The notes: generated from the letters alone by a model not told the origin. Shown: positions 750-23,441, counted from the first letter of the stretch. The stretch is DNA of 64,000 nucleotides from Candidatus Moraniibacteriota bacterium (GCA_026985555.1 JALSQF010000010.1:97163-161162), one strand, 5' to 3'. Made by a program: numbers and translations.

Positions 750-1700
750 ATGCGATTAATTATCAATCTTCCTGCTTATAATGAAGCAGAAAATATTGGA
801 GAAACCATTAAAAACATTCCTAGAAAAATAAAAGGATTTAATGAGGTTTTTGTTCAAGTTATTGATGATGGTTCTATGGATAAAACGGTTCAAATTGCTA
901 AAGAATCTGGAGCTGATTTTATTTATAGCCATTCTAAAAATAGAGGAATTGGAATTACTTTTCGTACAGCCGTTTGTAAAGCATTAGAAAATAAAGCCGA
1001 CTTAATGGTTAATATGGATGCTGATGGACAATTTAATTCATCCGATATTCCTTTATTAATAGAACCTATTTTAAAAGGAGAAGCCGATTTAGTGAGCGCT
1101 GATCGTTTTGGGCAACATAAGCCTAAAAATATACCTTGGATAAAAGATAAATTGAATAGGTTAGCTGCTTGGATTATTAGTAAATTTCTTAATCATAAAA
1201 TCAACGATTTAACTTGTGGTTTTCGCGCCTATTCACGCGAAACAATGTTACGCCTTAATCTTCCAGGAAATTTTACCTATACTCAAGAAGTGATTATAGA
1301 TGCCATAGGAAAAAACTTAAAAGTAAAATGGGTTCCAGTAAAAGTTACTTATTTTACTAATAGGAAATCTAGAGTAGTAAAAAGTCTTTATAGATATATT
1401 AATAATAGTGGAAAAATTATTTTAAAAGCTATTCGTGATGTGCGACCTATGAAATTTTTTGGTATTCCAGGAATAATTCTTTTATTTTTTGCTTTTTTTA
1501 TTTTGGGAATATTCTTTTATCATTATTTCAATAATTTCAAAATAACTCCTTATAAAAATTATCTTTTATTAAGTATCACTTTGCTTTTGGTAGGGTTACA
1601 ATTTATAATTTTTGCTTTAATTGCTGATATGATTAAAACTAATCGTAAGTTAACAGAAGATCAGATTTATTTAATGAGAAAAGAAAAATACAAAAAATAA
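750..1700 (+). CDS. family-2 glycosyltransferase, dolichyl/polyprenyl-phosphate sugar synthase-like (DPM1/GtrB/ArnC type)
   Basis: It has the GT-A signature VIDDGSMD (DxD) and NMDADGQF. It also has the two C-terminal hydrophobic helices typical of polyprenyl-phosphate glycosyltransferases. Confidence 0.8.
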   Translation: MRLIINLPAYNEAENIGETIKNIPRKIKGFNEVFVQVIDDGSMDKTVQIAKESGADFIYSHSKNRGIGITFRTAVCKALENKADLMVNMDADGQFNSSDIPLLIEPILKGEADLVSADRFGQHKPKNIPWIKDKLNRLAAWIISKFLNHKINDLTCGFRAYSRETMLRLNLPGNFTYTQEVIIDAIGKNLKVKWVPVKVTYFTNRKSRVVKSLYRYINNSGKIILKAIRDVRPMKFFGIPGIILLFFAFFILGIFFYHYFNNFKITPYKNYLLLSITLLLVGLQFIIFALIADMIKTNRKLTEDQIYLMRKEKYKK

Positions 1701-1719
1701 ATATATTTTAAGTTTTAAA

Positions 1720-2271
1720 TTATTTTCTAATATTGTTTAAAATTATATCAACAACTTCTTGAGGGGAAATTTGATTTGTGTCTACAACTAAATCAAAATG
1801 ATTATCGTCAACCATGTTTTTGATGCCATATAATCTTTCAATTCTTTTTTGGTGATTTTTTTCTCTTTCCTGGGTGCGTTTTTTTATTTCACTAAAAGTT
1901 CCCTGACGAAAAGCAATTCTATGTCCACTCTTATCGTTAGTTATTCTTCGTACCCTTTCATCTAAATCAGCTTTTAATAAAATTTTAAACGAATGAGGAA
2001 TAAAAAACCAACCTAATCGGGAATCTAAAATAAAATTATTTTTAGTTTTTCCTAAATTTTTTTGCAAATTATCAATTTCTTCATCTACTTTTATTTCAGG
2101 ATTTTTTGTTAAAAACTTATCAAATTCATCCATTGTCATTTTATATTTATCACGCGCAATTTTACGAAACATATCACCGCCAGCAATATATTGATAGTTT
2201 AATTTTTTAGCCAACATTCTTCCAACAGTTCCTTTACCTGCTCCAGGTAATCCGCTTAATGTGATTATCAT
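1720..2271 (-). CDS. cmk: cytidylate kinase, short archaeal-type P-loop NMP kinase
   Basis: The N-terminus MIITLSGLPGAGKGTVGRMLAKKL is a Walker A motif. The overall length (183 aa) and layout match archaeal-type CMP kinases. Confidence 0.65.
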   Translation of the reverse strand: MIITLSGLPGAGKGTVGRMLAKKLNYQYIAGGDMFRKIARDKYKMTMDEFDKFLTKNPEIKVDEEIDNLQKNLGKTKNNFILDSRLGWFFIPHSFKILLKADLDERVRRITNDKSGHRIAFRQGTFSEIKKRTQEREKNHQKRIERLYGIKNMVDDNHFDLVVDTNQISPQEVVDIILNNIRK

Positions 2272-2351
2272 AAACTATATAATTTTAACTATTGACAGCT
2301 TAAATAAAAAGCATTTAGTATAAATTTATAATAAACTATTATATTCTTTTT

Positions 2352-3437
2352 ATGCAAAAAAACAAGAGCTTAAAAATTTTATTCATTAGTCGTGCTTATC
2401 CTCCCACTATTGGTGGTATAGAAAATCAAAATTATGAAATTTCTCAATGGTTAAGTAAAATTAGCACAGTTAAAACAATTGCTAATCCCTATGGTAAAAA
2501 ATTTTTTCCTATTTTTTTCTTAATAGCTTTATTTAAAAGTTTAAAATTAATGCGTTCTTATGATGTTTTGTTGTTAGGTGACGGAACTTTAGCTTTGCTG
2601 GGTTGGATTATAAAAAAAGTTTATCATAAACCGGTTGTAAGTATTGTGCATGGACTAGATATTACTTATCCATTTTTTCTTTATCAAAAATTATGGGTTA
2701 AATTTTTCTTACCAAAATTAGATAAATTAATTGCGGTGGGAAAAGAAACTATTCGTCAAGGAGTAAAAAAAGGAATACCAGAAGAAAAATTTATTTTTAT
2801 ACCTAATGGTGTAGTAACAGAAAAATTTCAAGGAGATTATTCACGTAATGATCTTAATCGTATTACTAATTTAAACTTAAGTGGAAAAAAAATAATTTTA
2901 ACCTTAGGAAGATTAGCTAAACGTAAAGGAGTGGTATGGTTTATTGAAAATGTTATGCCTGATTTAGATAATGACGTTATCTATTTAATTGCTGGTGACG
3001 GACAAGAAAAAGAAAAAATTAAAGAGGTTATTAAGAAAAACGATTTACAAGATAAAGTAAAATTATTTACACAATTTAATGATGAGGAAAGAAAAATTTT
3101 ATATAATACAGCAGATTTATTTGTTCAACCCAATATTCAAGTAACAGGAGATATGGAAGGATTTGGATTGGTAGTTTTAGAGGCTGGTTCAGCTCAAAGG
3201 GTAGTTATTGCTTCTGAAATAGAAGGACTACAAGATGCTATTCAAAATGGTAAAAATGGTTTTTTGGTAGAAAGCGCTAATAAAGAACGTTGGATAAAAA
3301 AAATAGAAGCTATTTTAAAAGATGATTCTTTTAGAGAAATATTTGGACAACGTGCTTCAGAGTATGTTAATAAAAATTATCATTGGAAAGAAATCTCTCA
3401 AAAATATTTATCCGCTTTAAATTCTTTAGTATCTTGA
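2352..3437 (+). CDS. glycosyltransferase family 4 (GT-B fold)
   Basis: The C-terminal region FGLVVLEAGSAQRVVIASEIEGLQDAIQNGKNGFLV matches the GT4/GT1 EX7E-type nucleotide-sugar binding region. Confidence 0.8.
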   Translation: MQKNKSLKILFISRAYPPTIGGIENQNYEISQWLSKISTVKTIANPYGKKFFPIFFLIALFKSLKLMRSYDVLLLGDGTLALLGWIIKKVYHKPVVSIVHGLDITYPFFLYQKLWVKFFLPKLDKLIAVGKETIRQGVKKGIPEEKFIFIPNGVVTEKFQGDYSRNDLNRITNLNLSGKKIILTLGRLAKRKGVVWFIENVMPDLDNDVIYLIAGDGQEKEKIKEVIKKNDLQDKVKLFTQFNDEERKILYNTADLFVQPNIQVTGDMEGFGLVVLEAGSAQRVVIASEIEGLQDAIQNGKNGFLVESANKERWIKKIEAILKDDSFREIFGQRASEYVNKNYHWKEISQKYLSALNSLVS

Positions 3438-3598
3438 AAGTTTGTACTTAATAAAAATTAAAAATATTTTATATTTGAATAATTTAAATATTTTAATTTT
3501 TTATATTTTTTTAAATATTTTTTTGTGTTAAAATAAAAGAGTTATTACAATTATTTATTATTAATGATATAAGTTTTAAAAACACTTTTAATTAACCA

Positions 3599-5812
3599 AT
3601 GGCTTTTTTAAGCGAACAAATATTATTTTATTTATCTCTTTTAGTTGTCTTGATTCTTCCTGGATGGTTTTTGTTAGATGCTATTTTTCTTTTATCTCAA
3701 AACAAAAATAATAAAAAATATCAGCCTAAAAAAGAAAGGATTAATTTGTTTGAAAGAGTAAGTTTGTCAGTTTCTCTCAGCATTATAGTCGTTAATTTTT
3801 TATTGTTAGCCACAAAAAACACACATATTTTATTAGATGGAAAAAATATACTAATAATTATCGGTTCTTTTATTTTTTTAACTTGGTTGTTTTCTCGGAG
3901 AGCTAATTTAGTTGATGAATGGGAAGATATTAATGAAAAAAAAGATATTTATAAAAACAAGATAAAAATTAAACGGGCTAAAACATTAGTAGCTATTCTA
4001 ACTTTATTTTTATTGGGTCCGCTTTGGGCACTTTCTTCTCCCCAAACAAAATTTGTTAGTGGAGGAGTCATAGGTAATGTTATTGGAAACTTAATTATAC
4101 CTACTGCTCTCTATTTTTATTTAAGGGCCCTGCAAGAAAAAAGTAAAAAATTCTTGATTTTAGGTTTTTTTTCTACTCTAGGATTATTTTACATTCATCA
4201 TCTTTCTAGTTTTGTTTTTCTTTTTATAGTTCTTTTTATTTTATTAACTAATTTGTTATTCTATTTAATTATCAATTTTTGGCCTTCTTTAAAATGGTTT
4301 CAAATTAATATCATAGACAATCTTTCCTTTAACAATTTAAAAAAAGAAGATAAGAATCAAAATAATTCAGAACAATATTATAATTTTTCTAAAATAAAAA
4401 AAAGAAAAACTTATTTAAACCATAAAATTATTACCAGTAGCTTAATTATTCTCATTTTTTTTCTAACTATTTCTATTCGTGTTCTTTATCTAGAAAAAAC
4501 AATTTTTCCTACAGCTACTGATTTAGGACATCATCTTTACTGGTCTTCACAAATCGTAGCTAATAAGCATATTGTTCCTTATCAAAAATTAGCTATTTTA
4601 GAAAAAAATAATCACTATTTTTTAGAAAAAAAACGTATAGCCGATTTTATTATAGGAGAACATTTGATTTTTGTGGCCATTCATTTAATCTCTAATATTA
4701 GTTTTGTTTCTTATTTTCCAACCCTAGTATTGTTTTTTATTAACCTAGCTACTCTTTTAGTAATTTTTAATTTAGTTTATTATATTTTACCAGAAGAAGA
4801 ATGGTTAATTTTAACTAAAAATAAAATTAATTTAAAAAAAGATGAGAATGATTTTTTGTTTGTTTCTAAAAAAACAGAAAAAATAAAAGAATATTTCAAA
4901 TTATTTTTCAATCCCTATGTTTTTCTTTTTTTAACTTTATCTTTAGCTTATATTTATTTTATTTATTTGCCTTCCTATTTACAAATTCATGCCGTCAAAA
5001 CTGCCGTAGGAACTCCTTCTAAAGCTACTCGCGCAGGTTACACTTGGAGCGAAATTAAATATCAATTAAGTGGGATGCGTTTCGTTCTATTTTTAGGTGG
5101 TTTTTTTATAGTTTCTTTCTTTACTTTTTTTCGTCGTTTTCCTATTTTGAATGCTTCCTTAATTATTGGCTGGTTATCAGGTATTTTTTTGATGGTCTGG
5201 CGTCCTCAATGGCTATACATTAACATTCCTTCTGGAAGATTAATTACTTATCTTATTTTTCCTGTAGCTATTTTAAACGCTTTAGCTTTTGTTTTTTTCT
5301 TTTTAAAAAAGAAAGATCGGAGCGTTAGTTATTGGTTTACGTTTTTGGGATATTTGATTTTAGGAATATTAATTTTTTCTGGAGTTAAAGATAATATAGA
5401 TATTATCAATAAAACAAAGAATACTAAAAATCAACTGGCTTTAGCTACTTTTCATACTGCTCAATATCTTTCTAAAAAAATTGATGTTAAAAAAGAAAAC
5501 ATTGTTAAGGATCATAATTATTTAGTAGCTGATACTTGGATGAAAATATTTTTTCATCAAGACTATAATTATCCTCTTTCTCGTGGTTATTTTAAACGTT
5601 ATCAAGATAAAACTAAATCAAGAGAACATTGCACCTTGTGGATGATTTCTGAACCTAATTCTCAAGAAGCGCAAAAATGTTATCAAGATTTAAAAATAAA
5701 ATATATTATTATTAATCCTCAGTTTGATAAATTTCAATTTGAAAACTCTAATCAGTTTTGGAAAGTATACGATGGAAAGGAAATTGCTATCTATAGATAT
5801 AATCCATTTTAA
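3599..5812 (+). CDS. large polytopic membrane protein, possibly a GT-C-like glycosyltransferase
   Basis: The protein is 737 aa with more than ten hydrophobic segments and lysine-rich loops. It sits next to GT2 and GT4 genes. No firm catalytic motif was identified. Confidence 0.4.
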   Translation: MAFLSEQILFYLSLLVVLILPGWFLLDAIFLLSQNKNNKKYQPKKERINLFERVSLSVSLSIIVVNFLLLATKNTHILLDGKNILIIIGSFIFLTWLFSRRANLVDEWEDINEKKDIYKNKIKIKRAKTLVAILTLFLLGPLWALSSPQTKFVSGGVIGNVIGNLIIPTALYFYLRALQEKSKKFLILGFFSTLGLFYIHHLSSFVFLFIVLFILLTNLLFYLIINFWPSLKWFQINIIDNLSFNNLKKEDKNQNNSEQYYNFSKIKKRKTYLNHKIITSSLIILIFFLTISIRVLYLEKTIFPTATDLGHHLYWSSQIVANKHIVPYQKLAILEKNNHYFLEKKRIADFIIGEHLIFVAIHLISNISFVSYFPTLVLFFINLATLLVIFNLVYYILPEEEWLILTKNKINLKKDENDFLFVSKKTEKIKEYFKLFFNPYVFLFLTLSLAYIYFIYLPSYLQIHAVKTAVGTPSKATRAGYTWSEIKYQLSGMRFVLFLGGFFIVSFFTFFRRFPILNASLIIGWLSGIFLMVWRPQWLYINIPSGRLITYLIFPVAILNALAFVFFFLKKKDRSVSYWFTFLGYLILGILIFSGVKDNIDIINKTKNTKNQLALATFHTAQYLSKKIDVKKENIVKDHNYLVADTWMKIFFHQDYNYPLSRGYFKRYQDKTKSREHCTLWMISEPNSQEAQKCYQDLKIKYIIINPQFDKFQFENSNQFWKVYDGKEIAIYRYNPF

Positions 5813-5824
5813 TTAAAGTAAATT

Positions 5825-6172
5825 ATGTATCCAAAAGTTATTTTCTTTTTCCTAACCCTTTTTATTATAAGTAGTTTTTCTTGGTTGGCTTATCAAGAGA
5901 AGAAACAAGAAGAGATTAAAAATCAATGGTTTCTTTATTTTCAAAATCCGCAACAGCCAGATTTAAATTTTGTAATAGAAAACTATACTGACAATAAAAA
6001 TTTTAAGTGGTTACTTTTAAAAAATGAACAGCTTGTAAAAAAAGAAGATATGATTATTAAAAACAAAGAAAATAAAGAAATAAAAATTAATTCAAATAAT
6101 TTTTCAGGAAAAATAATTGTTAAAGTTCAACACAATGGAGAAGAAAAAGAAATTTATAAAATTCTCAAATAA
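5825..6172 (+). CDS. small protein with an N-terminal signal or anchor helix
   Basis: The hydrophobic N-terminus is MYPKVIFFFLTLFIISSFSWLAYQ. The start lies 13 nt after the preceding gene. Confidence 0.45.
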   Translation: MYPKVIFFFLTLFIISSFSWLAYQEKKQEEIKNQWFLYFQNPQQPDLNFVIENYTDNKNFKWLLLKNEQLVKKEDMIIKNKENKEIKINSNNFSGKIIVKVQHNGEEKEIYKILK

Positions 6173-6420
6173 AAAAACCACGTTCCTGAAAGGCCAAATT
6201 AAATTGTTAATTTGGGAAAGCTTAAACTTTCAACGTGGAATAATTTTTAAAATAATCCTGTCAGGCACTCCGCCAATTCTCCTTTAAGCGCGTTCAACAT
6301 CTTGCCAAGAACGTGGCTCCTCTATTGAAAAACGCTCTGAAACGGAGGAGCAGCAATTAGGAACGGAGAATTTAAAATATTTTTCCCAATCACTACTGAA
6401 CCCTGACAGGATGCATGCAT
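6173..6420. ncRNA. unclassified structured RNA candidate; GC-rich island with nested helices
   Basis: No ORF of 60 aa or more is present and GC content is visibly elevated. An 11-bp perfect stem (atcctgtcagg at 6255..6265 paired with cctgacaggat at 6402..6412) encloses three further helices: gctcctc/gaggagc, aattctcc/ggagaatt and gcgtt/aacgc. A 5' domain has a stem ccacgtt (6178..6184) paired with aacgtgg (6232..6238) that encloses hairpins gaaag/ctttc and ccaaattaa/ttaatttgg. The strand could not be decided. Confidence 0.35.
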
Positions 6421-6486
6421 TAGTAAGTTAGCGTAATTATTAAAAATTGTCAAGATTTTCTTACTTAAAAAATTAACTTTAAAATT

Positions 6487-7644
6487 ATGAAAGAGAAAAA
6501 AATTTTATATATTACTCGTCCTCTTTCCCCTCCTTGGGATGAAGCCAGTAAAAATTTTGCTTATAATTTAGCTCAACAAATAGCTTTAAAAAATTCCAAT
6601 TTTGAAATCAACATTTTAACTAAAAAAAAATTAACTAATCTTTCTTCTAATATTAGACAATATTCTATTTATACTTCTTCACAAAACGATTTCAATTGGC
6701 GCCAAAAAAAATATCTTTTTCAATTTTTATTAAAAACGATTCTTCAAAATAAATTTAATCTCTGGCACTCTTTTTTTACTCCAACCAAAATGAACACTTT
6801 TTTATTAAAAACTATTTTCAATCTTTCTTTTAAAAAAAATAAACCTAGAACTATTCAAACCATAGCCACCTTACGAGAAGATCTTTACTCAGAAAAAGAA
6901 TTTAAAAAAATACTTTTTGCTGATTGGCTAATAACTTATTCTCACTATGCCTTAAAACGTTTGAAAAAAATGGGATTTAAAAATGTTACTCAAATTTATC
7001 CCGGTATTGATTTAAAAAAATTTAAATTAACTTCTAAAAATTCTTTTCTTTTAAAAAAATATAATTTTTCTCAAAATGATTTCATCATTAATTTCACAGG
7101 AGAATATGTGCGTTTAAACGCTATAGATGATGTAATAAGTTCTTTTTTAGAAATAAGTCAAAAAATTCCTCAAGCTAAATTATCTCTAGCAGTCAGAGTT
7201 AAAAATTCTCAAGACGCGCAAAAGAAAAAAGAAGTTATTCAATTTCTTCAAAAGAATAATTTATTAAAAAGAGTAGCATTTCACGATGATGGAAATTATA
7301 CTATGTCTGATATTTATAATTTAGCTGATGTTAGTCTTTTCCCTGTTCAAAATATGCAAGGAAAATTTGATATACCCTTAGCAGTTATAGAAGCTATGGC
7401 TTGTGAAAAACCGGTAGTTATTTCTGATATTCCTATTTTACAAGAATTTTCTAATCAAAAAAATTCAGTTCAAATAAAAGCCGGAAATTTTAAACAACTA
7501 TCTAATGCTGTTATAGATCTTTATAAAAATCCAGAAAAAAGATTAAAAATCGGAAAACGAGCTCGGCAATATGTCAAAAATAACTTTAATTTAGAAAATG
7601 CAGAGCAAAAATATTCTCAATTATACCATTCTTTATTAAAATAA
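6487..7644 (+). CDS. glycosyltransferase, GT4/GT1 family
   Basis: The C-terminal IPLAVIEAMACEKPVVISDIPILQEF matches the GT-B donor-binding motif. Confidence 0.65.
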   Translation: MKEKKILYITRPLSPPWDEASKNFAYNLAQQIALKNSNFEINILTKKKLTNLSSNIRQYSIYTSSQNDFNWRQKKYLFQFLLKTILQNKFNLWHSFFTPTKMNTFLLKTIFNLSFKKNKPRTIQTIATLREDLYSEKEFKKILFADWLITYSHYALKRLKKMGFKNVTQIYPGIDLKKFKLTSKNSFLLKKYNFSQNDFIINFTGEYVRLNAIDDVISSFLEISQKIPQAKLSLAVRVKNSQDAQKKKEVIQFLQKNNLLKRVAFHDDGNYTMSDIYNLADVSLFPVQNMQGKFDIPLAVIEAMACEKPVVISDIPILQEFSNQKNSVQIKAGNFKQLSNAVIDLYKNPEKRLKIGKRARQYVKNNFNLENAEQKYSQLYHSLLK

Positions 7645-7764
7645 ACTCAAATTAAAAATAGAAAACTCTTAAGAATTTTTCCTGCGTTTTACCTCGTAAA
7701 CACTTCTATTTGATAAAATTTAACCAATAAATACAAACTAAAAAATAATAGATAAAATTATAAT

Positions 7765-8718
7765 CTATAAAGTTGTAATTGGTCTTGATTGAACAATATA
7801 AAATTTTCCTTTTTCAAGAGCCCACTCAATATCTTGCGGATAGTTGTAGTGTTTTTCTATTCTTTGACAAATTTCAGCAAGTTCCAGAATTTGTTTATCG
7901 GTTAATTTTTGTTTTTCTTGTTTAGCTTTTAAAACTTTAGTGTCCTTAGTTTTACCATTGATTTTTGTTATCATTTTTTCTTGTTTTGAAATATTCTTAT
8001 CTAAAATTTTAAATCCTTTTCTTTTTTTATGCTTGTGAATTATATAAGTATCGGGAGTTATTTTGCCACCAACAATTGCCTCTCCTAAACCATATCCAGC
8101 TTCAATAACCATTTGGTTTCTATTTTCAGTAACAGGATGAACAGTAAAACAAATTCCTGATATTTCAGATTGAATCATTGTTTGAATTACAACAGAAACA
8201 AAAACTTTTTGTTTATGCAAGTTTTTTTCATATCTGTAAAAAATTGCTCTTGGTGTAAACAATGATGACCAACATTTTTTTACTGATTCTAAAAGATTTT
8301 TTTCCGTTACATTTAAATAACTTTCAAGTTCTCCTGCCCAAGATGCAATTGAAGAATCTTCAGCGGTGGCAGAAGAACGAACCGCAACGTATTGAGTGTT
8401 AAGCTTTAAAAACTCATTTTTTATTTTATTTCCGATATCTGTTGGAAAGTTTGCATCATGAATTAAATCCCTAATTTTTTCTGATGTTCTTTCTATCGTT
8501 TCAATGTTTTTATAATCTACTTTACTTAGAGCTGCTTCAATTTCTATTCCTAAATCAGTTTCCTCTAAAAATTTTTCATAAGCTGAAGATAAAACAACAA
8601 ACCCTGGCGGTACAGGAATTTTAGCTCTTGTCATTTCCCCAAGCGAAGCACCCTTACCTCCAGCAATTGCTACATCATGCTTAGTTAAATTTTTAAAAGA
8701 TTTTACAATTTTACTCAT
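7765..8718 (-). CDS. stand-alone ATP-grasp nucleotide-binding domain of the PEP synthase / pyruvate phosphate dikinase family (PPDK_N)
   Basis: The N-terminus MSKIVKSFKNLTKHDVAIAGGKGASLGEMTRAKIPVPPGFVV is the hallmark start of PEP synthase/PPDK/rifampin-phosphotransferase ATP-binding domains. The protein is 317 aa and ends where the His domain would normally begin. Confidence 0.8.
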   Translation of the reverse strand: MSKIVKSFKNLTKHDVAIAGGKGASLGEMTRAKIPVPPGFVVLSSAYEKFLEETDLGIEIEAALSKVDYKNIETIERTSEKIRDLIHDANFPTDIGNKIKNEFLKLNTQYVAVRSSATAEDSSIASWAGELESYLNVTEKNLLESVKKCWSSLFTPRAIFYRYEKNLHKQKVFVSVVIQTMIQSEISGICFTVHPVTENRNQMVIEAGYGLGEAIVGGKITPDTYIIHKHKKRKGFKILDKNISKQEKMITKINGKTKDTKVLKAKQEKQKLTDKQILELAEICQRIEKHYNYPQDIEWALEKGKFYIVQSRPITTL

Positions 8719-8721
8719 AAT

Positions 8722-10245
8722 TTATTTTGTTTTTTTAACTGTTGCTTTTGTAAAATCAATTTCTACAGAATCTCCTGTTTTAAAAATTTTTGTAGCAAGT
8801 CTTGTACCTACAACACAAGGAATTTTAAATTCTCTACTAACTATTGCCGCGTGAGAAGTCATACCTCCCTCATCTGTAATGATCGCTAAAGCTCTTTTCA
8901 TTATAGAAATTAAACCAGGATGAGTTTGAACGGCAACTAATATATCGCCATCCTTAAATTTTTTTAGCTGCCTATCTGCGTCATATGAAGAACTTAATAC
9001 AAATACTTTACCGCTTATATTTTTTTTATCTTTCGGTAAAAAAGTAATAATACCTTTAACTGATTGCTTTTCTTCAATTTCTTTTTTTCTACTATTTAAT
9101 AAATCTTTTATTTCTTGTAACGCCTTTTTGCCGATTAATGTTTTTATGTTATTTTTACTAAATATTCTTAAATAAGCTTTTTGTCTCTCATTTAAAGTTT
9201 TTTTGTTTACTTTTTTACCATGTTTTATAAGTTGTAAAATCTCTTCAAATTCATAAGCATTTATATCTTCACTAGGTATTTGATAATATTTACTTAATGT
9301 TTCTACTATAATTTTAATATAATTCAGTAAACATAAAATGTAAGTATTCATATCAAATCTAAGAACTGATAAACGACCGGCAATATCGGCAAGTTGATAT
9401 TCAGAAATATTTTTATTTTTTTTAAGTATTTGTTTCCTTTTGTTTAAAACATTATCTGTAGATATAACTTTTTTATATTCTTTTTGTAATTTATTAGGAT
9501 CATTTAACAAAGAAATAGTTTTGTTAAATAAATAATCTAAATTTATTACCGCACCACCATAAAATCCCCAATTCAAAAATCCATATTTATCTATTTTGTT
9601 CTTAATTGCCCTAAACTTAGCTTGATTTTTCTTGTTATACTGATCTATTGTGCATTTTGCCTTTTTTATGTCATAAGCATAAAGAATAATATCTTTTTCA
9701 ATTTCAGCAGTAAGCGTTCTACTTTCTCCCATACTAGCGATAAAACTTAATTCGTTTTTGTTAGGAGACTGATTTAATTTTTTTTCTATTAAATTTAATC
9801 TTTGAGGTTGAGTTAGAAAATAATAACCATTTGCAAAAGTGCAAACCCTTTTGATATTCTTCAATAAACTAATTACTTTTGTTTTTTTAGTTAGTATAGC
9901 AACAAATTCTTTGCCATGAATTTCTTGAAAATATTTGTCTGAAATTTGTTTTGTTAAAAGAAATAATTCTTCAGCTTTTTTTTGAAAATTGTCAAAAAAT
10001 ACTTTATCTGAAAAATTTTTTAGACTAGTTTCAGCTTCTTTTTGAAGCGCACTTTTATCATATGCACCAAACCAAAAAGCATTTGGTTTGTTTTGTGTGT
10101 ATAAATACCATTTATCTGGTGCGTATCCTGAAATATTTTCTATTAATTTGTAGACTTTGTCGTTAATCCAGGCGCCTTTTTTATCAAAAAAATAAATAGG
10201 CGTAAATTGTGTTTGGTCATACATTATTTTAGGTAATTTTTTCAT
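8722..10245 (-). CDS. PEP-utilizing-enzyme mobile (phosphohistidine swivel) domain protein with an N-terminal domain of about 400 aa of unknown function
   Basis: The C-terminal region KDGDILVAVQTHPGLISIMKRALAIITDEGGMTSHAAIVSREFKIPCVVGT carries the GGxTSHAAI phosphohistidine motif of PEP-utilizers. The N-terminal ~400 aa show no recognisable motif. The gene stops 3 nt before the ATP-grasp gene (junction TAA-ATT-ATG). Confidence 0.75.
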   Translation of the reverse strand: MKKLPKIMYDQTQFTPIYFFDKKGAWINDKVYKLIENISGYAPDKWYLYTQNKPNAFWFGAYDKSALQKEAETSLKNFSDKVFFDNFQKKAEELFLLTKQISDKYFQEIHGKEFVAILTKKTKVISLLKNIKRVCTFANGYYFLTQPQRLNLIEKKLNQSPNKNELSFIASMGESRTLTAEIEKDIILYAYDIKKAKCTIDQYNKKNQAKFRAIKNKIDKYGFLNWGFYGGAVINLDYLFNKTISLLNDPNKLQKEYKKVISTDNVLNKRKQILKKNKNISEYQLADIAGRLSVLRFDMNTYILCLLNYIKIIVETLSKYYQIPSEDINAYEFEEILQLIKHGKKVNKKTLNERQKAYLRIFSKNNIKTLIGKKALQEIKDLLNSRKKEIEEKQSVKGIITFLPKDKKNISGKVFVLSSSYDADRQLKKFKDGDILVAVQTHPGLISIMKRALAIITDEGGMTSHAAIVSREFKIPCVVGTRLATKIFKTGDSVEIDFTKATVKKTK

Positions 10246-10249
10246 AGTT

Positions 10250-11065
10250 TTATTGTTTTTTAATAATTAATTCTTTTCCTTTAAAAAATAATTTTATTGT
10301 CTGTTTTCCATTTTCATCAGATCTTATTTCTATTTTTGGACCTTCTAATGGCTTAATAAGTCCTCCAATCATCTTTAAATTAACTTCTTCCGGTTGTAAT
10401 TCTGGATGATTCTTGAGATAAATAAGTTTATTAAAATATTCTATAACTCCGCTATGACCAATTAAAACAATTTTTACCCGACTATTTGATTTTAAACGAG
10501 ATGCTAACTTACTAAAATGATCAATTAATTTTTCTATTTCTTGACCAAAATCCTTGCCTTTTAAGTGAGAATCTGGCCATTTTTTATCAAAAAATTGTTC
10601 AATTAAAAGACTATTACCAACTTGTTCAAGATCTATAGTTTCAGGTTCGTAAGCAATTTGCTTTTTTTCCTTTGTAATTTTATCAAGATCATCCTGCGTT
10701 AAAATATTTCTTTTTTTTAATTCTTCAATTAACGCCTTTTTAGCTTGAGGAGAAAATTCAGACCATCTTCCTAATAATTCTTCTTTAGTTCTAATAGATG
10801 ATTTTATTCTTTTTTCTTTTAAAAAATTTTGAATATCTTTCCTTAATTGTTGTGGACGTTTATGTGGACTTAAATAAAATTTTACTAAATCAAAAGAATC
10901 ATCGTATTCATTTTCTAATTTTTCTAAAAATTGTTGCTTTCCTTTGTTGGTAATATTACCTGTTTCATAATCTTTATCAGGATGGCGTATTAATTCTATT
11001 TCCATTGCAACATTAGCTCCATATTCTAATCTTTCTTTTTGTTCAAATCTTTTTAAAAATTCCAT
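10250..11065 (-). CDS. histidine phosphatase superfamily protein (phosphoglycerate-mutase/SixA-like fold)
   Basis: The N-terminal LIRHPDKDYETGNITNKGKQQ fits the RH-x7-G-x-(L/I)T-x2-G-x2-Q pattern. The C-terminal IVLIGHSGVI carries the second catalytic His. A 4-nt gap to the next gene implies co-transcription. Confidence 0.55.
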   Translation of the reverse strand: MEFLKRFEQKERLEYGANVAMEIELIRHPDKDYETGNITNKGKQQFLEKLENEYDDSFDLVKFYLSPHKRPQQLRKDIQNFLKEKRIKSSIRTKEELLGRWSEFSPQAKKALIEELKKRNILTQDDLDKITKEKKQIAYEPETIDLEQVGNSLLIEQFFDKKWPDSHLKGKDFGQEIEKLIDHFSKLASRLKSNSRVKIVLIGHSGVIEYFNKLIYLKNHPELQPEEVNLKMIGGLIKPLEGPKIEIRSDENGKQTIKLFFKGKELIIKKQ

Positions 11066-11113
11066 GTCCTTAGATTAAAGTTTTTCAATATAAAAATATT
11101 GATATCTACCTAT

Positions 11114-11141
11114 ATTGTATTTAATTAAATATAATTGTCAA
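11114..11141 (-). promoter_or_regulatory. sigma70-like promoter for the phosphatase/dikinase operon
   Basis: The minus strand reads TTGACA (11141..11136), a 16-nt spacer, then TACAAT (11119..11114). This places the start site about 40 nt upstream of the ATG at 11065. Confidence 0.5.
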
Positions 11142-11310
11142 TCCTTTAGATAAAATGATTTTTTTGTAAAAACCTCCTAAACTTTCAACTTACTTTTTTC
11201 TGAAAATTGAGCTTAAAAAATTTTATTCTTAAATAATTTTTTGGCTTACTATTTGTTTTTGAGCTTAAAAATGTTTTTTTTAAATTTCTTTATAAAAATA
11301 AAATTTATAA

Positions 11311-11358
11311 AAATAAAAAATGGTCGTCTATCTTTTTAATTAACGACCATTTTTATGT
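11311..11358 (-). terminator. rho-independent terminator after the nrdD C-terminal mini-gene
   Basis: The stem atggtcgt/acgaccat (11316..11327 paired with 11343..11354) is followed by a T-run on the minus strand. It lies 12 nt downstream of the stop at 11370. Confidence 0.6.
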
Positions 11359-11369
11359 TTTTTCTATAT

Positions 11370-11654
11370 TTAGCAAGTTCCTGTAGAACAAGAGGGAGTT
11401 TCTACTACAAAAGTTTGTCTATCTTTCCATTCTTCTGCTTTACCTTTGTTCCAACGTCTTACTGGAGTATGAAAACCAACTACGCGAGAATAAACATCGC
11501 AAGGTTGATAATTTTCTAAAACAGGATTAGCTTTATAACAACTTTTGCATTTTATAGCATCCTCTCCTTCAACAGCGCTAGTATAGCGCACGTATTTTTC
11601 CCCTTTTTTAATTGTCTTACCACAATCATGGCAAACTAATTTTTGTGTTTTCAT
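11370..11654 (-). CDS. stand-alone C-terminal module of anaerobic ribonucleotide reductase: Zn ribbon plus glycyl-radical loop
   Basis: It has CHDCG and CKSC (four-Cys ribbon) followed by YSRVVGFHTPVRRWNKGKAEEWKDR. This compares with E. coli NrdD C-terminus CYECG..CPKCG..RRVCGYLGSP..NAGKQEEVKRR. Confidence 0.8.
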   Translation of the reverse strand: MKTQKLVCHDCGKTIKKGEKYVRYTSAVEGEDAIKCKSCYKANPVLENYQPCDVYSRVVGFHTPVRRWNKGKAEEWKDRQTFVVETPSCSTGTC

Positions 11655-11786: not shown

Positions 11787-13841
11787 TTAAGCCACTTCAA
11801 ACTTTACTTTTTGTTGAGATAATTCTAGTTTACACTTAGGACAGGTATGATGTTCCCCTTTAATATAACCATGCTTGGGACAAATACTGAATGTGGGTGT
11901 AAAGGTAAAATAAGGTAAAGCATAGTTAGTTGCAATAGTTCTCACTAAATTTTTTACTACTTCTATATCATTTATTTTTTCTCCTAAAAATCCATGCAAG
12001 ACTGTTCCTCCTGTGTATTTTGTCTGCAAGTCATCTTGTAGATCTAGAGCTTCAAAAATATCAGAAGTAAAACCAACAGGCAACTGTGAAGAATTAGTAT
12101 AGTAAGGTTCAGCATTTTCTTCTTTCACTGCTTGATCATTAGCAAAAATAATATCTGGAAAACGTTCTTTGTCTAATTTAGCTAAACGATAAGTAGTTCC
12201 TTCCGCAGGAGTAGCTTCTAAATTATAGAGATGTTCTGTTTCTTTTTGATAAGTTAAAAGTTTCTTTCTCATATGTTTGAGAACACGTTGCGCAAAACGA
12301 TTTCCTTCATAAGTAGTGATATCTTTACCTAACAAATTAAGTAGACCTTCGTTTAAACCTACTAAACCAATGGTAGAAAAATGATTAGCCCAATAGCTAC
12401 CTTGTTTTCTTTTTATATCTCCTAAATAATGTTTAGAATAAGGATAAAGTCCTGTTTCGGTTAGCTTTTCAATAAAAACTCTTTTTAATTCTAAGCTTTC
12501 TTTAGCCACTTCCATTAAATAGTCAACCCTTTGAAGAAACTCTTCTCTATTTTTTGATAAATAACCTATGCGTGGCATATTTAAAGTAACTACGCCAATG
12601 GAACCAGTCATAGGATTAGCGCCAAATAATCCTCCTCCTCGCTTCCTTAATTCTCTATTATCTAAACGTAAACGACAACACATACTACGCGCATCATCAG
12701 GACTCATATCAGAATTAACAAAATTAGCAAAATAAGGCATTCCATATTTAGCTGTCATTTCCCAAATAGGATTTAAAGCAGGATCGTCCCAATTAAAATC
12801 TTTGGTAATGTTATAGGTGGGAATAGGAAAAGTGAAAACTCTTTTTTGTGCATCTCCTTCTGACATAACTTCTGCAAAAGCCTTATTAATCATATTCATT
12901 TCCTTTTGATATTCACTATAAGTATGAGGCTGGGGCATTCCTCCTATAATAACAGCTTCGTCTTTTAAAGTAGAGGGAACTTGTAAATCTAAAGTAATAT
13001 TAGAAAATGGCGTTTGGAAACCTACTCTAGTAGGAACATTCATATTAAATACAAATTCTTGAAGAGCTTGTTTTACTTCTTTATATTTTAATTTATCAAA
13101 ATGAACAAAAGGAGCTAGTAAAGTATCAAAATTAGAAAAAGCTTGTGCTCCATTAGCTTCTCCTTGAAGAGTATATATAAAATTTACCATTTGTCCTAAA
13201 GCACTTCGGAAATGTTTAGGAGGAGCAGAATGAACCTTGCCTGGAACGCCGCCAAATCCTTTCAAAAGTAAATCTTTAAGATCCCAACCGCAACAATAAG
13301 CAGCTACCATTTGTAAATCATGCACATGGAGATCTCCTTCTTCGTGCGCTTTTCTAATACGTTCTGTGTAAACTCTATTCATCCAATATTTAGCGCTAAC
13401 AATAGAAGAAATAAAATTATTTAATCCTTGTAAACTATATCCCATATTAGAATTTTCTTTTGTTCTCCAATCCGCTTCCCCAATATATTTATCAACTAAA
13501 TCAATAGCATCTTTTAAAGCATCTTCTGTTTCTCTTACTTTACGATGTTGATCACGATAAAGAATATACGCTTTAGCTGTTTCTTCAAAATCTAAAACCA
13601 TTAAAACACGTTCTACTATGTCTTGAATCTCTTCTATTTCTGGTATATAACCTTGACGATGATTTTTGTTAAGTAATTGAATTACTTTACGAGTTACTTT
13701 AATAGCTTCTTTTTCTCCTCCTTCTTTAGTTTCTTGAAGTGCTTTTTGAACCGCTTTAATAATTTTTTCTTTTTTAAAAGCGACTATTCTTCCACTTCTT
13801 TTGATAACTTTTTTTACTTTGTTTTTTATTGGTCTTGGCAT
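11787..13841 (-). CDS. nrdD: anaerobic ribonucleoside-triphosphate reductase catalytic subunit, ending after its Zn ribbon and lacking the glycyl-radical loop
   Basis: It has an N-terminal ATP-cone, a class III RNR core and C-terminal PTFSICPKHGYIKGEHHTCPKCK. The ORF stops 15 aa after CPKC without any RVxGY motif. Confidence 0.85.
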   Translation of the reverse strand: MPRPIKNKVKKVIKRSGRIVAFKKEKIIKAVQKALQETKEGGEKEAIKVTRKVIQLLNKNHRQGYIPEIEEIQDIVERVLMVLDFEETAKAYILYRDQHRKVRETEDALKDAIDLVDKYIGEADWRTKENSNMGYSLQGLNNFISSIVSAKYWMNRVYTERIRKAHEEGDLHVHDLQMVAAYCCGWDLKDLLLKGFGGVPGKVHSAPPKHFRSALGQMVNFIYTLQGEANGAQAFSNFDTLLAPFVHFDKLKYKEVKQALQEFVFNMNVPTRVGFQTPFSNITLDLQVPSTLKDEAVIIGGMPQPHTYSEYQKEMNMINKAFAEVMSEGDAQKRVFTFPIPTYNITKDFNWDDPALNPIWEMTAKYGMPYFANFVNSDMSPDDARSMCCRLRLDNRELRKRGGGLFGANPMTGSIGVVTLNMPRIGYLSKNREEFLQRVDYLMEVAKESLELKRVFIEKLTETGLYPYSKHYLGDIKRKQGSYWANHFSTIGLVGLNEGLLNLLGKDITTYEGNRFAQRVLKHMRKKLLTYQKETEHLYNLEATPAEGTTYRLAKLDKERFPDIIFANDQAVKEENAEPYYTNSSQLPVGFTSDIFEALDLQDDLQTKYTGGTVLHGFLGEKINDIEVVKNLVRTIATNYALPYFTFTPTFSICPKHGYIKGEHHTCPKCKLELSQQKVKFEVA

Positions 13842-14503: not shown

Positions 14504-14545
14504 AAAAAATAGGTTTACTTAAATAAAAAGTAAACCTATTTTTTG
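14504..14545. terminator. bidirectional rho-independent terminator between the tRNA pair and nrdR
   Basis: A 12-13 bp stem (aataggtttactt paired with agtaaacctatt) with loop aaataaaa is flanked by A-runs and T-runs on both sides. Confidence 0.6.
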
Positions 14546-14548
14546 ATG

Positions 14549-14621
14549 TGGACCGGACAGGACTTGAACCCGCCACCTCCTCGGTGCAAACGAGGTGCTC
14601 TACCAGATGAGCTACCGGCCC
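14549..14621 (-). tRNA. tRNA-Ala (anticodon TGC)
   Basis: The minus strand reads gggccggtagctcatctggtagagcacctcgtttgcaccgaggaggtggcgggttcaagtcctgtccggtcca. It has a G3:U70 pair, an anticodon loop tttgcac, a T-loop ggttcaagtcc and discriminator A. CCA is not encoded. Confidence 0.9.
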
Positions 14622-14644
14622 GTTTAATTAAAATTTTCTATCTA

Positions 14645-14718
14645 GTGGGCATACCAGGATTTGAACCTGGGACCTCAACATTATCAGTGTTGCGCTCTAA
14701 CCAACTGAGCTATATGCC
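14645..14718 (-). tRNA. tRNA-Ile (anticodon GAT)
   Basis: The minus strand reads gggcatatagctcagttggttagagcgcaacactgataatgttgaggtcccaggttcaaatcctggtatgccca. It has an anticodon loop ctgataa and a T-loop ggttcaaatcc. Confidence 0.9.
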
Positions 14719-14778
14719 CTCATTTAAAAACATTAAAAATACTTACTCAGATAATATATAATAAATAAAAAATATTGT

Positions 14779-23219: not shown

Positions 23220-23290
23220 GGTCCGATGGCCGAGTGGTTAGGCAAGGGTCTGCAAAACCCTGGACGGCGGTTCAATTCCGCCTCGGACCT
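23220..23290 (+). tRNA. tRNA-Cys (anticodon GCA)
   Basis: Sequence is ggtccgatggccgagtggttaggcaagggtctgcaaaaccctggacggcggttcaattccgcctcggacct. It has an anticodon loop ctgcaaa and a T-loop ggttcaattcc. The discriminator is U, as expected for Cys. Confidence 0.85.
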
Positions 23291-23357
23291 CTTGAAGTTT
23301 TTTAATTTAATTTGTAAAATAGTTATTGTATAATTTTTGATATTTAAATTTGATATT

Positions 23358-23441
23358 GCCGCGGTGGTGGAATTGGTAGACACGAGAGACTTAAAATCTC
23401 TTGGGATTATTCCCGTGTGGGTTCGAGTCCCACCCGTGGCA
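23358..23441 (+). tRNA. tRNA-Leu (anticodon TAA), class II with a long variable arm
   Basis: Sequence is gccgcggtggtggaattggtagacacgagagacttaaaatctcttgggattattcccgtgtgggttcgagtcccacccgtggca. It has an anticodon loop cttaaaa and discriminator A. Confidence 0.85.

Follow-up and report, generated by a model that had tools for sequence, protein, structure and literature searches.

A probable split RPH-type dikinase linked to a histidine-phosphatase-family gene in a CPR-like bacterium

Three minus-strand open reading frames, g1, g2 and g3, encoding 271, 507 and 317 amino acids and separated by gaps of 4 and 3 nt, lie together in the window, that is, the whole 64-kb stretch of DNA that was analysed. 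A preliminary description had reported three tightly packed genes here, and their coordinates proved exact. The locus comprises the following features:

10250..11065, minus strand: g1, a 271-aa histidine-phosphatase-superfamily (branch 1) protein, from motifs, AF2 and Foldseek
8722..10245, minus strand: g2, whole gene, 507 aa, a helical domain of ~395 aa followed by a phospho-His swivel
9061..10245, minus strand: N-terminal domain of g2 (~residues 1-395), helical and RIF-binding-domain-like, from AF2 and Foldseek
8725..9048, minus strand: C-terminal phospho-histidine swivel of g2 (residues ~400-507), from Pfam PEP-utilizers and motif
7765..8718, minus strand: g3, 317 aa, nucleotide-binding subunit consisting of an ATP-grasp (PPDK_N) alone, from Pfam
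11114..11141, minus strand: candidate sigma-70-like promoter (TTGACA, 16 nt, TACAAT)
11309..11350, minus strand: hairpin with a T-run, 8-bp stem ATGGTCGT/ACGACCAT, 15-nt loop

The promoter-like site TTGACA-16-TACAAT at 11141..11114, already noted in the preliminary description, lies inside the 304-nt gap upstream of g1, matches the consensus at 11 of 12 positions and is the top-scoring site within 7500-11500; the total count of promoter-like sites shows no excess over shuffled sequence. It is a plausible sigma-70-like promoter for the operon. The hairpin, found by eye (our automated scanner is blind to loops >8 nt), probably terminates transcription of the nrdD-fragment gene upstream, in which case the dikinase/phosphatase operon would be isolated from that gene. 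Between the hairpin and g1 neither an Rfam family nor a stable leader was found. The 4- and 3-nt gaps, the one good promoter and the upstream hairpin support the unity of the operon.

As had been proposed, g3 is a PPDK_N protein, matching Pfam PF01326 at 2e-102 over residues 18-316 (profile positions 3-311 of 328, the full domain). It spans residues 1 to ~315-337 of the NCBIfam models of PEPS and RPH, and by sequence it matches PEPS (8a8e, 2.6e-78), the ATP-grasp of RPH (5hv6, 2.4e-66) and HpeI (9goj, 3.5e-53) in the PDB. The C-terminus of g2 is likewise confirmed as a Pfam PEP-utilizers domain (1.7e-24, residues 430-498), with the swivel motif GGMTSHAAIVSRE, in which T457-x-x-G-G-M-T-S-H465 places the catalytic histidine at codon 8851-8853. 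His465 is invariant across 49 g2 homologs, and Thr463, two residues before it in GGMTSH, is nearly invariant in the family.

Residues 1-400 of g2 gave no Pfam match, carbohydrate-binding modules included. NCBIfam models of RPH, PigC and PRK06241 cover g2 from residue ~267-325 to its C-terminus and g3 from end to end, and the AF2 model of g2 (pLDDT 93.5) aligns over its whole length with RPH-Lm, which accounts for the top six Foldseek matches (587-622 columns, E 1.4e-10 to 2.5e-9, TMq 0.30-0.46, structure-based identity 14-19%); all other Foldseek matches cover the swivel only. By this comparison of the full model, the N-terminal part, which the preliminary description had left uncharacterised, resembles the RIF-binding domain of RPH. 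The domain is strongly conserved among homologs, and conservation together with its RIF-binding-like character implies a bound ligand; on the model we presume it to be the acceptor-substrate site. The g2 orthogroup is narrow (31 cluster representatives). Orthologs at 38-63% identity keep their full length and catalytic residues.

We suggest that g2 and g3 together form a split RPH-type water dikinase, on the strength of the RPH domain order, the end-to-end alignment of g2 and the existence of fused relatives. Both hallmarks of the PEP-utilizer dikinase superfamily, PPDK_N and the conserved-His swivel motif, are present, and the reading of the locus as a two-protein dikinase, with a separate PPDK_N protein and a swivel protein, is upheld as a prediction from sequence and model. 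RPH consists of ATP-grasp (1-314), RIF-binding (327-754) and swivel (767-865) domains in that order (PMC4844700), not of ATP-grasp, His and substrate domains as the preliminary description had it, and g2, in which a helical RIF-binding-like domain precedes the C-terminal swivel, is therefore in normal RPH order and not permuted. What differs from RPH, in which the ATP-grasp is N-terminal on one chain, is that g3 is a separate downstream gene, giving two polypeptides in swapped gene order. Proteins that fuse ATP-grasp, g2-type N-domain and swivel occur in three loci (L007, L008 and L030), with the same three modules in the same order as in the RPH family (PRK06241, PigC/RedH). The preliminary description had held that fused orthologs in PEP-synthase order, with a TIM barrel nearby, would speak against it; fused relatives do exist, but they are in RPH order and lack the TIM barrel.

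That the module is not a PEP synthase, as the preliminary description maintained, follows from the absence of the TIM barrel. Pfam detects no PEP/pyruvate TIM barrel in g1-g3, and tblastn of the 64-kb window with four PEPS C-termini gave a best E of 0.52, in a search where the N-terminal parts of PEPS recovered both g3 and g2. PEP synthase and PPDK do supply the best sequence matches through their homologous ATP-grasp and swivel, with GG-x-T-S/C-H kept, but they carry a TIM barrel, whereas here the swivel is preceded by a helical RIF-binding-like domain. Scores fall below the cut-offs of the PEPS equivalogs TIGR01418 (739.75 bits; g2 93.9, g3 345.8) and NF005057 (598 bits; g2 102, g3 360.6) and of the RPH equivalog NF041857 (999 bits; g2 45.8, g3 298). 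The last is missed so far that nothing points to rifamycin as the substrate.

The split itself is not undescribed, since it is known, with the same order of His-protein gene and then ATP-grasp gene, in phenylphosphate synthase PpsAB (PMC6114531) and in HpeHI/CreHI, for which a two-component subfamily has been defined (PMC12167813). The present locus shares with PpsAB(C), CreHI and HpeHI the adjacent genes, His protein first, the separate ATP-grasp protein of ~35-40 kDa, a substrate domain followed by a C-terminal swivel with T/S-x-x-G-G-x-x-x-H, and the presumed transfer of a pyrophosphoryl group to His and onward to an OH group. The differences are nonetheless considerable. The alpha subunit PpsA is 70 kDa, against the 507 aa of g2 (PMC6114531); HpeH, CreH and PpsA are ~45% identical to each other and carry Met two residues before the catalytic His (PMC12167813), where g2 has the PEPS-type Thr463, HpeH being compared by its description. 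HpeI is further from g3 than are PEP synthase and RPH. The window locus has no carboxylase or aromatic-catabolism genes nearby, a conserved phosphatase partner stands where PpsC would, and the bacterium that carries the genes is CPR-like, with a reduced genome. Thr463, and the closer similarity of g3 and the swivel to PEP synthase than to HpeI, argue for an independent split outside the phenol-kinase clade.

The remaining gene, g1, is divergent. It falls below threshold for Pfam His_Phos_1 (PF00300) and has no PDB match by sequence. In its family (67 proteins, of which 52 sequences were used for residue conservation and Pfam), 28 of the 52 match His_Phos_1 on their own at E <= 0.01 (best 5.6e-07), and the ortholog in L091 passes the cut-off of 21.7 bits with 23.3; the profile search suggested in the preliminary description gives matches for part of the family and none for g1 itself. 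R27, H28, R70 and H204 are invariant in the 52 sequences, the motif reads RHP instead of RHG, and E96 is the majority residue, at <90% conservation; together these five residues are the catalytic candidates suggested by sequence. The AF2 model (pLDDT 90.9) finds solely histidine-phosphatase-superfamily structures (dPGM/PGAM5/RosC/MINPP) among its top 50 Foldseek matches, at probability 0.97-1.0, with TM values of 0.3-0.57 that are reduced by a helical insert of ~60-70 aa. In hhalign, g1 aligns to canonical neighbours at E 1.6e-5. The relatives, the invariant residues and the fold thus bear out the earlier motif reading: g1 is a real member of the family, a divergent histidine phosphatase predicted from sequence and model to be catalytically intact, and its place in one operon with the dikinase stands.

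Comparison of loci ties the two activities together. A phosphatase gene adjoins the dikinase in all eight independent loci reached via g2 orthologs: a g1-type partner in the window, L005 and L091, a short His_Phos partner (146-199 aa) in L001, L003, L092 and L093, and an LMW-PTP in L007. Approached from the other side, all three loci reached via g1 relatives have that relative directly upstream of a swivel protein, and the g1-type gene lies 0-10 nt upstream of the swivel gene in the window, L005, L088, L089, L090 and L091. Nine g1/g2 homolog pairs also have longest contigs of equal length, suggesting that the members of each pair share a contig. The RH, SPxxR and (G/S)H residues are kept in all partner types, and partner type is independent of g2 phylogeny, as in L005 (g1 type) and L001 (short type), whose g2 proteins are 66% identical. 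LMWPc, an unrelated phosphatase fold, also recurs beside dikinases. None of 20 canonical PEP-synthase loci has a neighbouring phosphatase, against 11-15 of 60 GTDB loci with g2-like genes in the broad family, a marginal difference (p = 0.057 to 0.017). CPR/DPANN relatives have arrays of at least nine g2-like genes and single ORFs that combine one ATP-grasp with up to eight swivel modules; in the majority of g2-like arrays there is either one phosphatase or none, so the phosphatase is dispensable for dikinase chemistry generally.

By homology, g3 would take ATP and move its beta,gamma-pyrophosphoryl group onto His465 of the g2 swivel; the gamma-phosphate would leave as Pi and AMP would be freed. 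The swivel would then return to the RIF-binding-like N-domain of g2 itself, where the beta-phosphate would pass to a cytosolic small molecule held by that domain. The accepting group is most likely a hydroxyl, and an aryl or phenolic OH is a reasonable guess by analogy with the characterised two-component relatives, which phosphorylate phenolics. By eye, the sequences of g1 and g2 show no obvious hydrophobic stretch at the N-terminus, so the target is probably cytosolic.

Within the same pathway, g1 would take phosphate off. We tentatively favour the phospho-product, or a compound derived from it, as the molecule that g1 hydrolyses; this could be one step of the pathway, or kinase and phosphatase together could control how much of a phosphorylated metabolite is present. 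Kinases locked to a histidine-phosphatase-fold enzyme are familiar from PFK-2/FBPase-2 and PPIP5K/Vip1, the kinase of PPIP5K being an ATP-grasp. The likeness to g1 and g2/g3 is an analogy of genetic linkage and implies no kinase homology, as those are fused eukaryotic proteins with ordinary kinases, whereas here the genes are separate and the phosphatase type is interchangeable. A kinase and a phosphatase acting on one compound make a futile cycle unless they are regulated or another step intervenes. No third conserved pathway enzyme was found near the dikinases in the loci compared.

A possible though weaker alternative is that g1 strips phospho-His (or phospho-Thr463) from the g2 swivel. The module would then not be a metabolite kinase/phosphatase pair but a 'histidine dikinase' that phosphorylates itself, under regulation or in signalling, and g1 would be its off-switch or reset. 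SixA, a His_Phos_1 phosphatase, takes phospho-His off a carrier or a catalytic intermediate: it dephosphorylates NPr in PTS-Ntr, where a swivel-domain enzyme drives the relay (PMC7948535, PMC6282199), and it inhibits Ndk by removing that enzyme's catalytic phospho-His (PMC12934123). VadK, a truncated PPDK, acts as a His kinase that phosphorylates itself and has a regulatory role (PMC13400623). The short partner type matches SixA in size, one g1 relative is annotated 'SixA' by JGI, the near-invariance of Thr463 fits, and swivels are ~60% identical across paralogs, so that a single phosphatase could serve a whole array. In L005 and L091, however, His_Phos proteins and swivel proteins alternate 1:1; the swivel proteins differ in their N-domains and the His_Phos proteins have diverged strongly from one another, a pattern suggesting that phosphatase specificity goes with the substrate domain, not with the swivel, which is conserved. 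Moreover, g1 is 110 aa longer than SixA, and large helical inserts such as its own are commoner in small-molecule histidine phosphatases and mutases than in the minimal SixA, which is not known to be encoded beside its targets. The ligand implied by the g2 N-domain also argues against this alternative, and removing a catalytic intermediate would waste ATP in an energy-poor cell.

It is unlikely that g1 is instead a phospho-acceptor or mutase, with the swivel phospho-His passing its phosphate to His28 and g1 serving as terminal phosphotransferase or mutase, or, in a variant, with the chain running in reverse to harvest phosphoryl groups into ATP. The histidine-phosphatase fold does use a phospho-His intermediate and includes true mutases (dPGM), which are among the top structural matches of g1. 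EI-type swivel proteins of the PTS donate phosphate to protein acceptors, the g1-type genes of six loci lie close upstream of the swivel gene, and PEPS/PPDK-type chemistry is reversible (PMC13400623). Yet no His_Phos-swivel fusion was found, the sole candidate (P0032) looking like an over-called start, and the partner is divergently transcribed in four loci, replaced by a cysteine-based LMW-PTP in L007 and swapped in type among close g2 orthologs, all of which speaks against an interface co-evolved for phosphotransfer between the two proteins; ordinary phosphoesters, for their part, are unable to drive ATP synthesis. What is left of the probability goes to other roles for g1.

We consider very improbable the version of the preliminary description, a permuted GWD-like dikinase acting on a glycan made by neighbouring glycosyltransferases. 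In GWD a substrate-binding part, the His domain and the nucleotide-binding domain follow one another, with water-dikinase chemistry, and the succession of g2 and g3 resembles this. The likeness is limited to order, because GWD and PWD are single chains with carbohydrate-binding modules, whereas the g2 N-domain matches the RIF-binding domain within a whole-protein match to RPH and fused relatives put the ATP-grasp first, as in RPH. A GT2/GT4/DUF1616/GT4 cluster adjoins the operon, but it lies on the opposite strand and is absent from the other loci; in L088, the sole other locus with a GT4 alongside, that gene overlaps the end of the dikinase operon, but it is non-orthologous (22% identity, E 0.013), and the probably cytosolic target also speaks against a glycan. 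Finally, the reading of the genes as remains of a broken or decaying PEP synthase or PPDK, or of an RPH turned pseudogene, without a function of their own is effectively refuted: PEP synthase does give the closest sequence matches of the ATP-grasp and swivel, and automatic pipelines label such genes PEP synthase (K01007), as seen in Nanobdellota genomes without glycolysis (bioRxiv 10.64898/2026.05.13.725050), but all three reading frames are intact, with close coupling between them, orthologs keep full length and catalytic residues, the window has no TIM barrel, NF005057 is missed widely, and both AF2 models (g1 and g2) are of high confidence.

It is thus probable that g3 and g2 form a split RPH-type dikinase with a functionally linked phosphatase, and not a permuted dikinase, a PEP synthase or a glycan kinase. 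The literature searched holds no description of a conserved phosphatase partner of such kinases, nor of their large expansion in ultra-small bacteria and archaea. The split being already known, the novelty here is the phosphatase link. In this host, probably a tiny-genome bacterium of the CPR, and in its relatives, the catalytic residues kept in all partner types, the interchangeability of those types and the recurrent LMWPc suggest that it is phosphatase activity itself that selection maintains.

The three genes of the operon lie on the minus strand, separated by 4 and 3 nt, and their coordinates agree with those of the preliminary description, as do the three domain assignments:

10250-11065, minus strand: g1, histidine-phosphatase-family protein, 271 aa
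8722-10245, minus strand: g2, N-terminal domain followed by a swivel domain, 507 aa
7765-8718, minus strand: g3, ATP-grasp protein, 317 aa
11141-11114, minus strand: sigma-70-like site, TTGACA-16-TACAAT
about 11350-11309, minus strand: 8-bp hairpin plus T-run (read by eye), probably the terminator of the preceding gene

The promoter candidate, located in the 304-nt gap 5' of g1, matches at 11/12 positions and is the top-scoring site of the region, in which promoter-like sites in total are not above shuffled sequence. An Rfam search of the promoter-to-g1 stretch found nothing at E <= 1, and the leader 5' of g1 folds no better than shuffles, so that no riboswitch offers a clue to a ligand. The window has a G+C content of about 26% and is of bacterial origin, encoding RpoB, a single-chain RpoC, NrdR, and NrdD; most homologs of g1-g3 belong to Patescibacteria/CPR and DPANN metagenome bins. 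Two side observations concern the genes beyond the operon. The anaerobic ribonucleotide reductase NrdD is apparently split into two ORFs, the smaller lying 132 nt downstream of the larger and carrying a Cys-rich stretch and, as a possible glycyl-radical site, an RVVGF motif; and a 72-aa ORF (14543-14761, plus strand), probably spurious, overlaps the first of two tRNA pairs.

11787-13841, minus strand: main NrdD ORF, 684 aa, Pfam NRDD positions 1-528
11370-11654, minus strand: small NrdD ORF, 94 aa, Pfam NRDD positions 510-562
14549-14719, minus strand: tRNA gene pair
23220-23441, plus strand: tRNA gene pair

Profile searches identified g3 as a complete PPDK_N ATP-grasp domain (Pfam, 2e-102), which aligns with residues 1 to about 315-337 of the PEP synthase and rifampin phosphotransferase (RPH) models and matches the solved ATP-grasp domains of PEP synthase (8a8e, 2.6e-78), RPH (5hv6, 2.4e-66), and HpeI (9goj, 3.5e-53). 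Residues 430-498 of g2 are a PEP-utilizers swivel domain (Pfam, 1.7e-24) with the motif TDEGGMTSH465, His465 being invariant in 49 homologs, while residues 1-400 match no Pfam family. The sequence of g1 alone gave no significant match in Pfam, NCBIfam, or PDB, and a weak guanylate-kinase match (E 0.0055) was discarded as spurious. Its family of 67 proteins is nevertheless linked to His_Phos_1, which 28 of 52 members match individually, and has R27, H28, R70, and H204 as invariant residues. The top 50 structural matches of the g1 AF2 model (pLDDT 90.9) are exclusively phosphoglycerate mutases, PGAM5, RosC, MINPP, and acid phosphatases; the TM-scores are moderate (0.3-0.57), as would fit a conserved core with a helical insert of about 60-70 residues. 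None of g1-g3 matched the PADLOC defence models, leaving a defence role without support.

The N-domain of g2 matches the RIF-binding domain of RPH, and fused relatives in related genomes run in the order PPDK_N, g2-type N-domain, swivel:

L007: fused dikinase, 832 aa, close-ortholog N-domain HMM match of 3e-129
L008: fused dikinase, 836 aa
L030: fused dikinase, 828 aa

Since this is the RPH order, g2 and g3 together are, as judged from their domains, an RPH-type dikinase divided at the linker that follows the ATP-grasp and encoded in swapped gene order, rather than a permutation; in three loci (L001, L089, L091) the ATP-grasp gene lies upstream instead. The preliminary description had proposed a permuted two-protein dikinase resembling glucan,water dikinase (GWD). 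The ATP-grasp and swivel matches uphold a two-protein dikinase, the fused relatives speak against permutation, and the RIF-binding-like N-domain speaks against the GWD likeness.

Such a split architecture is already known. In phenylphosphate synthase, encoded by adjacent genes, a 40-kDa beta subunit passes a diphosphoryl group to the His of a 70-kDa alpha subunit (PMC6114531), and in HpeHI the ATP-grasp is HpeI and the substrate domain plus swivel is HpeH, with RPH described as the fused equivalent (PMC12167813). The window operon would work like these enzymes but falls outside their clade: PEP synthase and RPH are nearer in sequence to g3 and the g2 swivel than HpeI is, and at position -2 from the His g2 keeps the PEP-synthase-type Thr in place of the Met of HpeH, CreH, and PpsA (PMC12167813). 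The operon is not a PEP synthase, as the preliminary description held, and a fragmented PEP synthase can likewise be rejected, given that g2 and g3 miss the PEP synthase equivalog cut-offs by a wide margin and that no TIM barrel occurs in the operon (Pfam) or anywhere in the 64-kb window.

The association with a phosphatase is real and recurrent. In all eight independent loci reached via g2 (the window included; orthologs 38-63% identical), a phosphatase gene lies beside the dikinase. The window, L005, and L091 have a His_Phos of the g1 type (about 275 aa), which precedes the g2 ortholog by 4-7 nt in the same direction. The partner in L001, L003, L092, and L093 is a Pfam-positive His_Phos_1 of the short type (146-199 aa), transcribed divergently, and in the fused relative L007 a protein of the LMW-PTP family is encoded at a distance of 3 nt. 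Besides its short His_Phos_1, L092 has an LMW-PTP. Each of the three loci reached via g1 (L088, L089, L090) has g1 0-10 nt upstream of a swivel protein, and in nine further pairs of g1 and g2 homologs the longest contigs are of identical length, which suggests that the members of each pair lie on a common contig. In a GTDB comparison, a His_Phos or LMW-PTP ORF lay within 300 nt of g2-like genes in 11 (Pfam-supported) to 15 (HMM-only matches included) of 60 loci, vs 0 of 20 canonical PEP-synthase loci (Fisher's p 0.057 to 0.017).

The partner type does not track the g2 tree, as the g2 proteins of L005 (g1 type) and L001 (short type) are 66% identical. Between the two His_Phos types hhalign could align little (probability 79%, 56 columns); the RH / SPxxR / (G/S)H residues are kept in all partner types. 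This recruitment of non-orthologous phosphatases of two unrelated folds indicates that selection next to the dikinase acts on phosphatase activity as such. We found no description of a His-phosphatase/dikinase pairing in the searchable literature, and what is new here is the conserved, interchangeable phosphatase partner together with the CPR orthogroup of the window operon. A candidate His_Phos-g2 fusion, the 709-aa g2-like protein P0032, was discarded: its first 220 residues contain no domain and its g2-like part starts with Met at 221, so the extension is probably an over-called start. LMWPc genes beside g2-like dikinases occur as an alternative or addition to the His_Phos partner:

L007:2876-3529, minus strand: LMWPc gene
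L092:5584-5991, minus strand: LMWPc gene
L022:4669-5154, minus strand: LMWPc gene
L054:8081-8545, minus strand: LMWPc gene
L030:1-252, minus strand: LMWPc gene
L032:9594-10244, minus strand: LMWPc gene

Other neighbours vary. Directly after the g2 ortholog of L093, in the place of PPDK_N in the window and L003, is an APH/fructosamine-kinase-family protein (Pfam APH 9.4e-16), and no ATP-grasp is visible within the 7.7 kb examined of that locus. In L090, g1 and a cluster of two swivel proteins are followed by an inorganic pyrophosphatase and a faint PP2C/SpoIIE-like gene, hinting that PPi or further phosphatase chemistry may be involved in some versions. A second conserved component, a short swivel protein that the window lacks, accompanies the g1 and g2 orthologs. 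Copies from different loci share about 60% identity, and their identity to the PPDK_N fusion of L092 (689 aa) is 30-31% over residues 330-687 of the latter.

L093:3697-4641, plus strand: APH/fructosamine-kinase-family protein
L090:8202-8564 and 8710-9441, plus strand: inorganic pyrophosphatase, then PP2C/SpoIIE-like gene
L088:3880-4986; L090:5850-6953; L091:2068-3168: short swivel protein, about 367 aa
L092:3482-5551; L088:5824-7878; L005:1-1344: longer proteins listed with the second component, about 685-691 aa, that of L092 being the PPDK_N fusion

As to the role of g1, we tentatively favour hydrolysis of the phospho-product or a derivative, because the g1 insert is cap-like and because L005 and L091, in which His_Phos-swivel pairs alternate behind one ATP-grasp, pair distinct His_Phos lineages with distinct N-domain types. 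The main rival, which we consider rather less probable, is that g1 has a regulatory function and removes the phospho-His, or phospho-Thr463, from the swivel, for which there are precedents in SixA, which acts on NPr (PMC7948535, PMC6282199) and on the Ndk catalytic intermediate (PMC12934123), and in the signalling dikinase VadK (PMC13400623). A relay or mutase role of g1 is improbable, as the partner is divergently transcribed in four loci, a Cys-based phosphatase replaces g1 in L007, and fusions are absent.

By homology, g3 would pyrophosphorylate His465 of g2 from ATP, with release of the gamma-phosphate as Pi, and the swivel would dock on g2's own N-domain and phosphorylate a small molecule bound there. 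The N-domain is strongly conserved within the orthogroup, yet its family is narrow (31 cluster representatives among 1.84 billion proteins, phmmer), which would imply a specific ligand. Inspection of the g1 and g2 sequences by eye, with no predictor, revealed no obvious N-terminal hydrophobic segment, which makes a cytosolic target probable. Aryl phosphates are the classical substrates of LMW-PTPs. For this reason, and because the characterised two-component dikinases all act on phenolics (PMC12167813), the group phosphorylated may reasonably be guessed, by analogy, to be an aryl or phenolic hydroxyl. The glycan from neighbouring glycosyltransferases (GTs) that the preliminary description envisaged as a possible target is very hard to sustain, as the cluster runs opposite to the operon and is conserved in no other locus examined, the sole other neighbouring GT4 (L088) is not an ortholog of the window GT4, and the RIF-binding-like N-domain has no carbohydrate-binding-module Pfam match.

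750-7644, plus strand: GT2, GT4, DUF1616, and GT4 genes, convergent on the operon

The earlier interpretation is therefore partly supported, leaving a two-protein dikinase with a real phosphatase partner that is neither permuted, GWD-like, nor glycan-directed.

In related loci outside the window, g2-like genes of CPR and DPANN bins form tandem arrays, usually with one PPDK_N gene, and there are giant single ORFs in which one N-terminal PPDK_N ATP-grasp precedes 2-8 modules of a variable helical domain plus a swivel His domain; we found no description of either in the searchable literature.

L019, L014, L017, L022, L024, L018: tandem arrays, 6-9 g2-like genes of about 480 aa per locus
L043:2281-13566, plus strand: giant ORF, 3,761 aa, eight swivels
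L032:3538-9597; L033:1669-7653; L051:3172-7371: giant ORFs, DPANN/CPR bins (as is L043)
L035:384-4319; L011:4204-7905; L041:1673-5137: giant ORFs, DPANN/CPR bins

L019 and L014 hold nine g2-like genes each, and the Nealsonbacteria contig MHMM01000017.1 is the source of both L014 (9) and the overlapping L017 (6), which adds several more to that array. In the L019 array the N-domains average 25% identity and the swivels 60%, and this divergence, with usually one PPDK_N per array, suggests that a single nucleotide-binding 'charger' may serve many diversified substrate modules. On a further reading, the operon could be the smallest version of a modular phosphotransfer platform that is mostly restricted to CPR/DPANN. 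One ATP-grasp charger would load many interchangeable modules of substrate domain plus swivel His, supplied either in trans, by arrays of at least 9 genes, or in cis, by single ORFs carrying as many as 8 swivels. The phosphatases (His_Phos or LMW-PTP) would be integral to the platform as its third component, either acting on the phospho-His carrier or accepting phosphate themselves, and not ordinary metabolite phosphatases. We regard this reading as unlikely; if true, it would amount to a multi-output phosphorelay or metabolite-trapping system of a new kind, in organisms that scavenge nearly everything, and might explain part of the 'PEP synthase' calls in Nanobdellota. That assignment (K01007) is reported to be near-universal in Nanobdellota lacking glycolysis, being present without upstream glycolysis in 54/54 Pacearchaeales, 111/123 Woesearchaeales, and 28/31 Maxwellarchaeales (bioRxiv 10.64898/2026.05.13.725050). 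As many of the DPANN loci found here carry RPH-type dikinases without a TIM barrel, a part of these assignments may be wrong, and metabolic reconstructions may count RPH-like modules as 'PEP synthase' in error.

The locus is a compact, three-gene version of an RPH-like system to which a phosphatase has been recruited repeatedly, from at least three lineages and two folds, which is the usual mark of a reversible phosphorylation switch or a phospho-intermediate pathway. RPH-like dikinases form a large family for which, to our knowledge, the only assigned substrates are rifamycins, a few phenolics, and prodiginine precursors. Some tiny CPR/DPANN genomes spend 10 kb or more on module arrays or giant fusions, so the system probably matters for a scavenging or host-dependent lifestyle, and the minimal operon of the window, which combines a single module with one ATP-grasp and one phosphatase, is a natural entry point for biochemistry on this large expansion.
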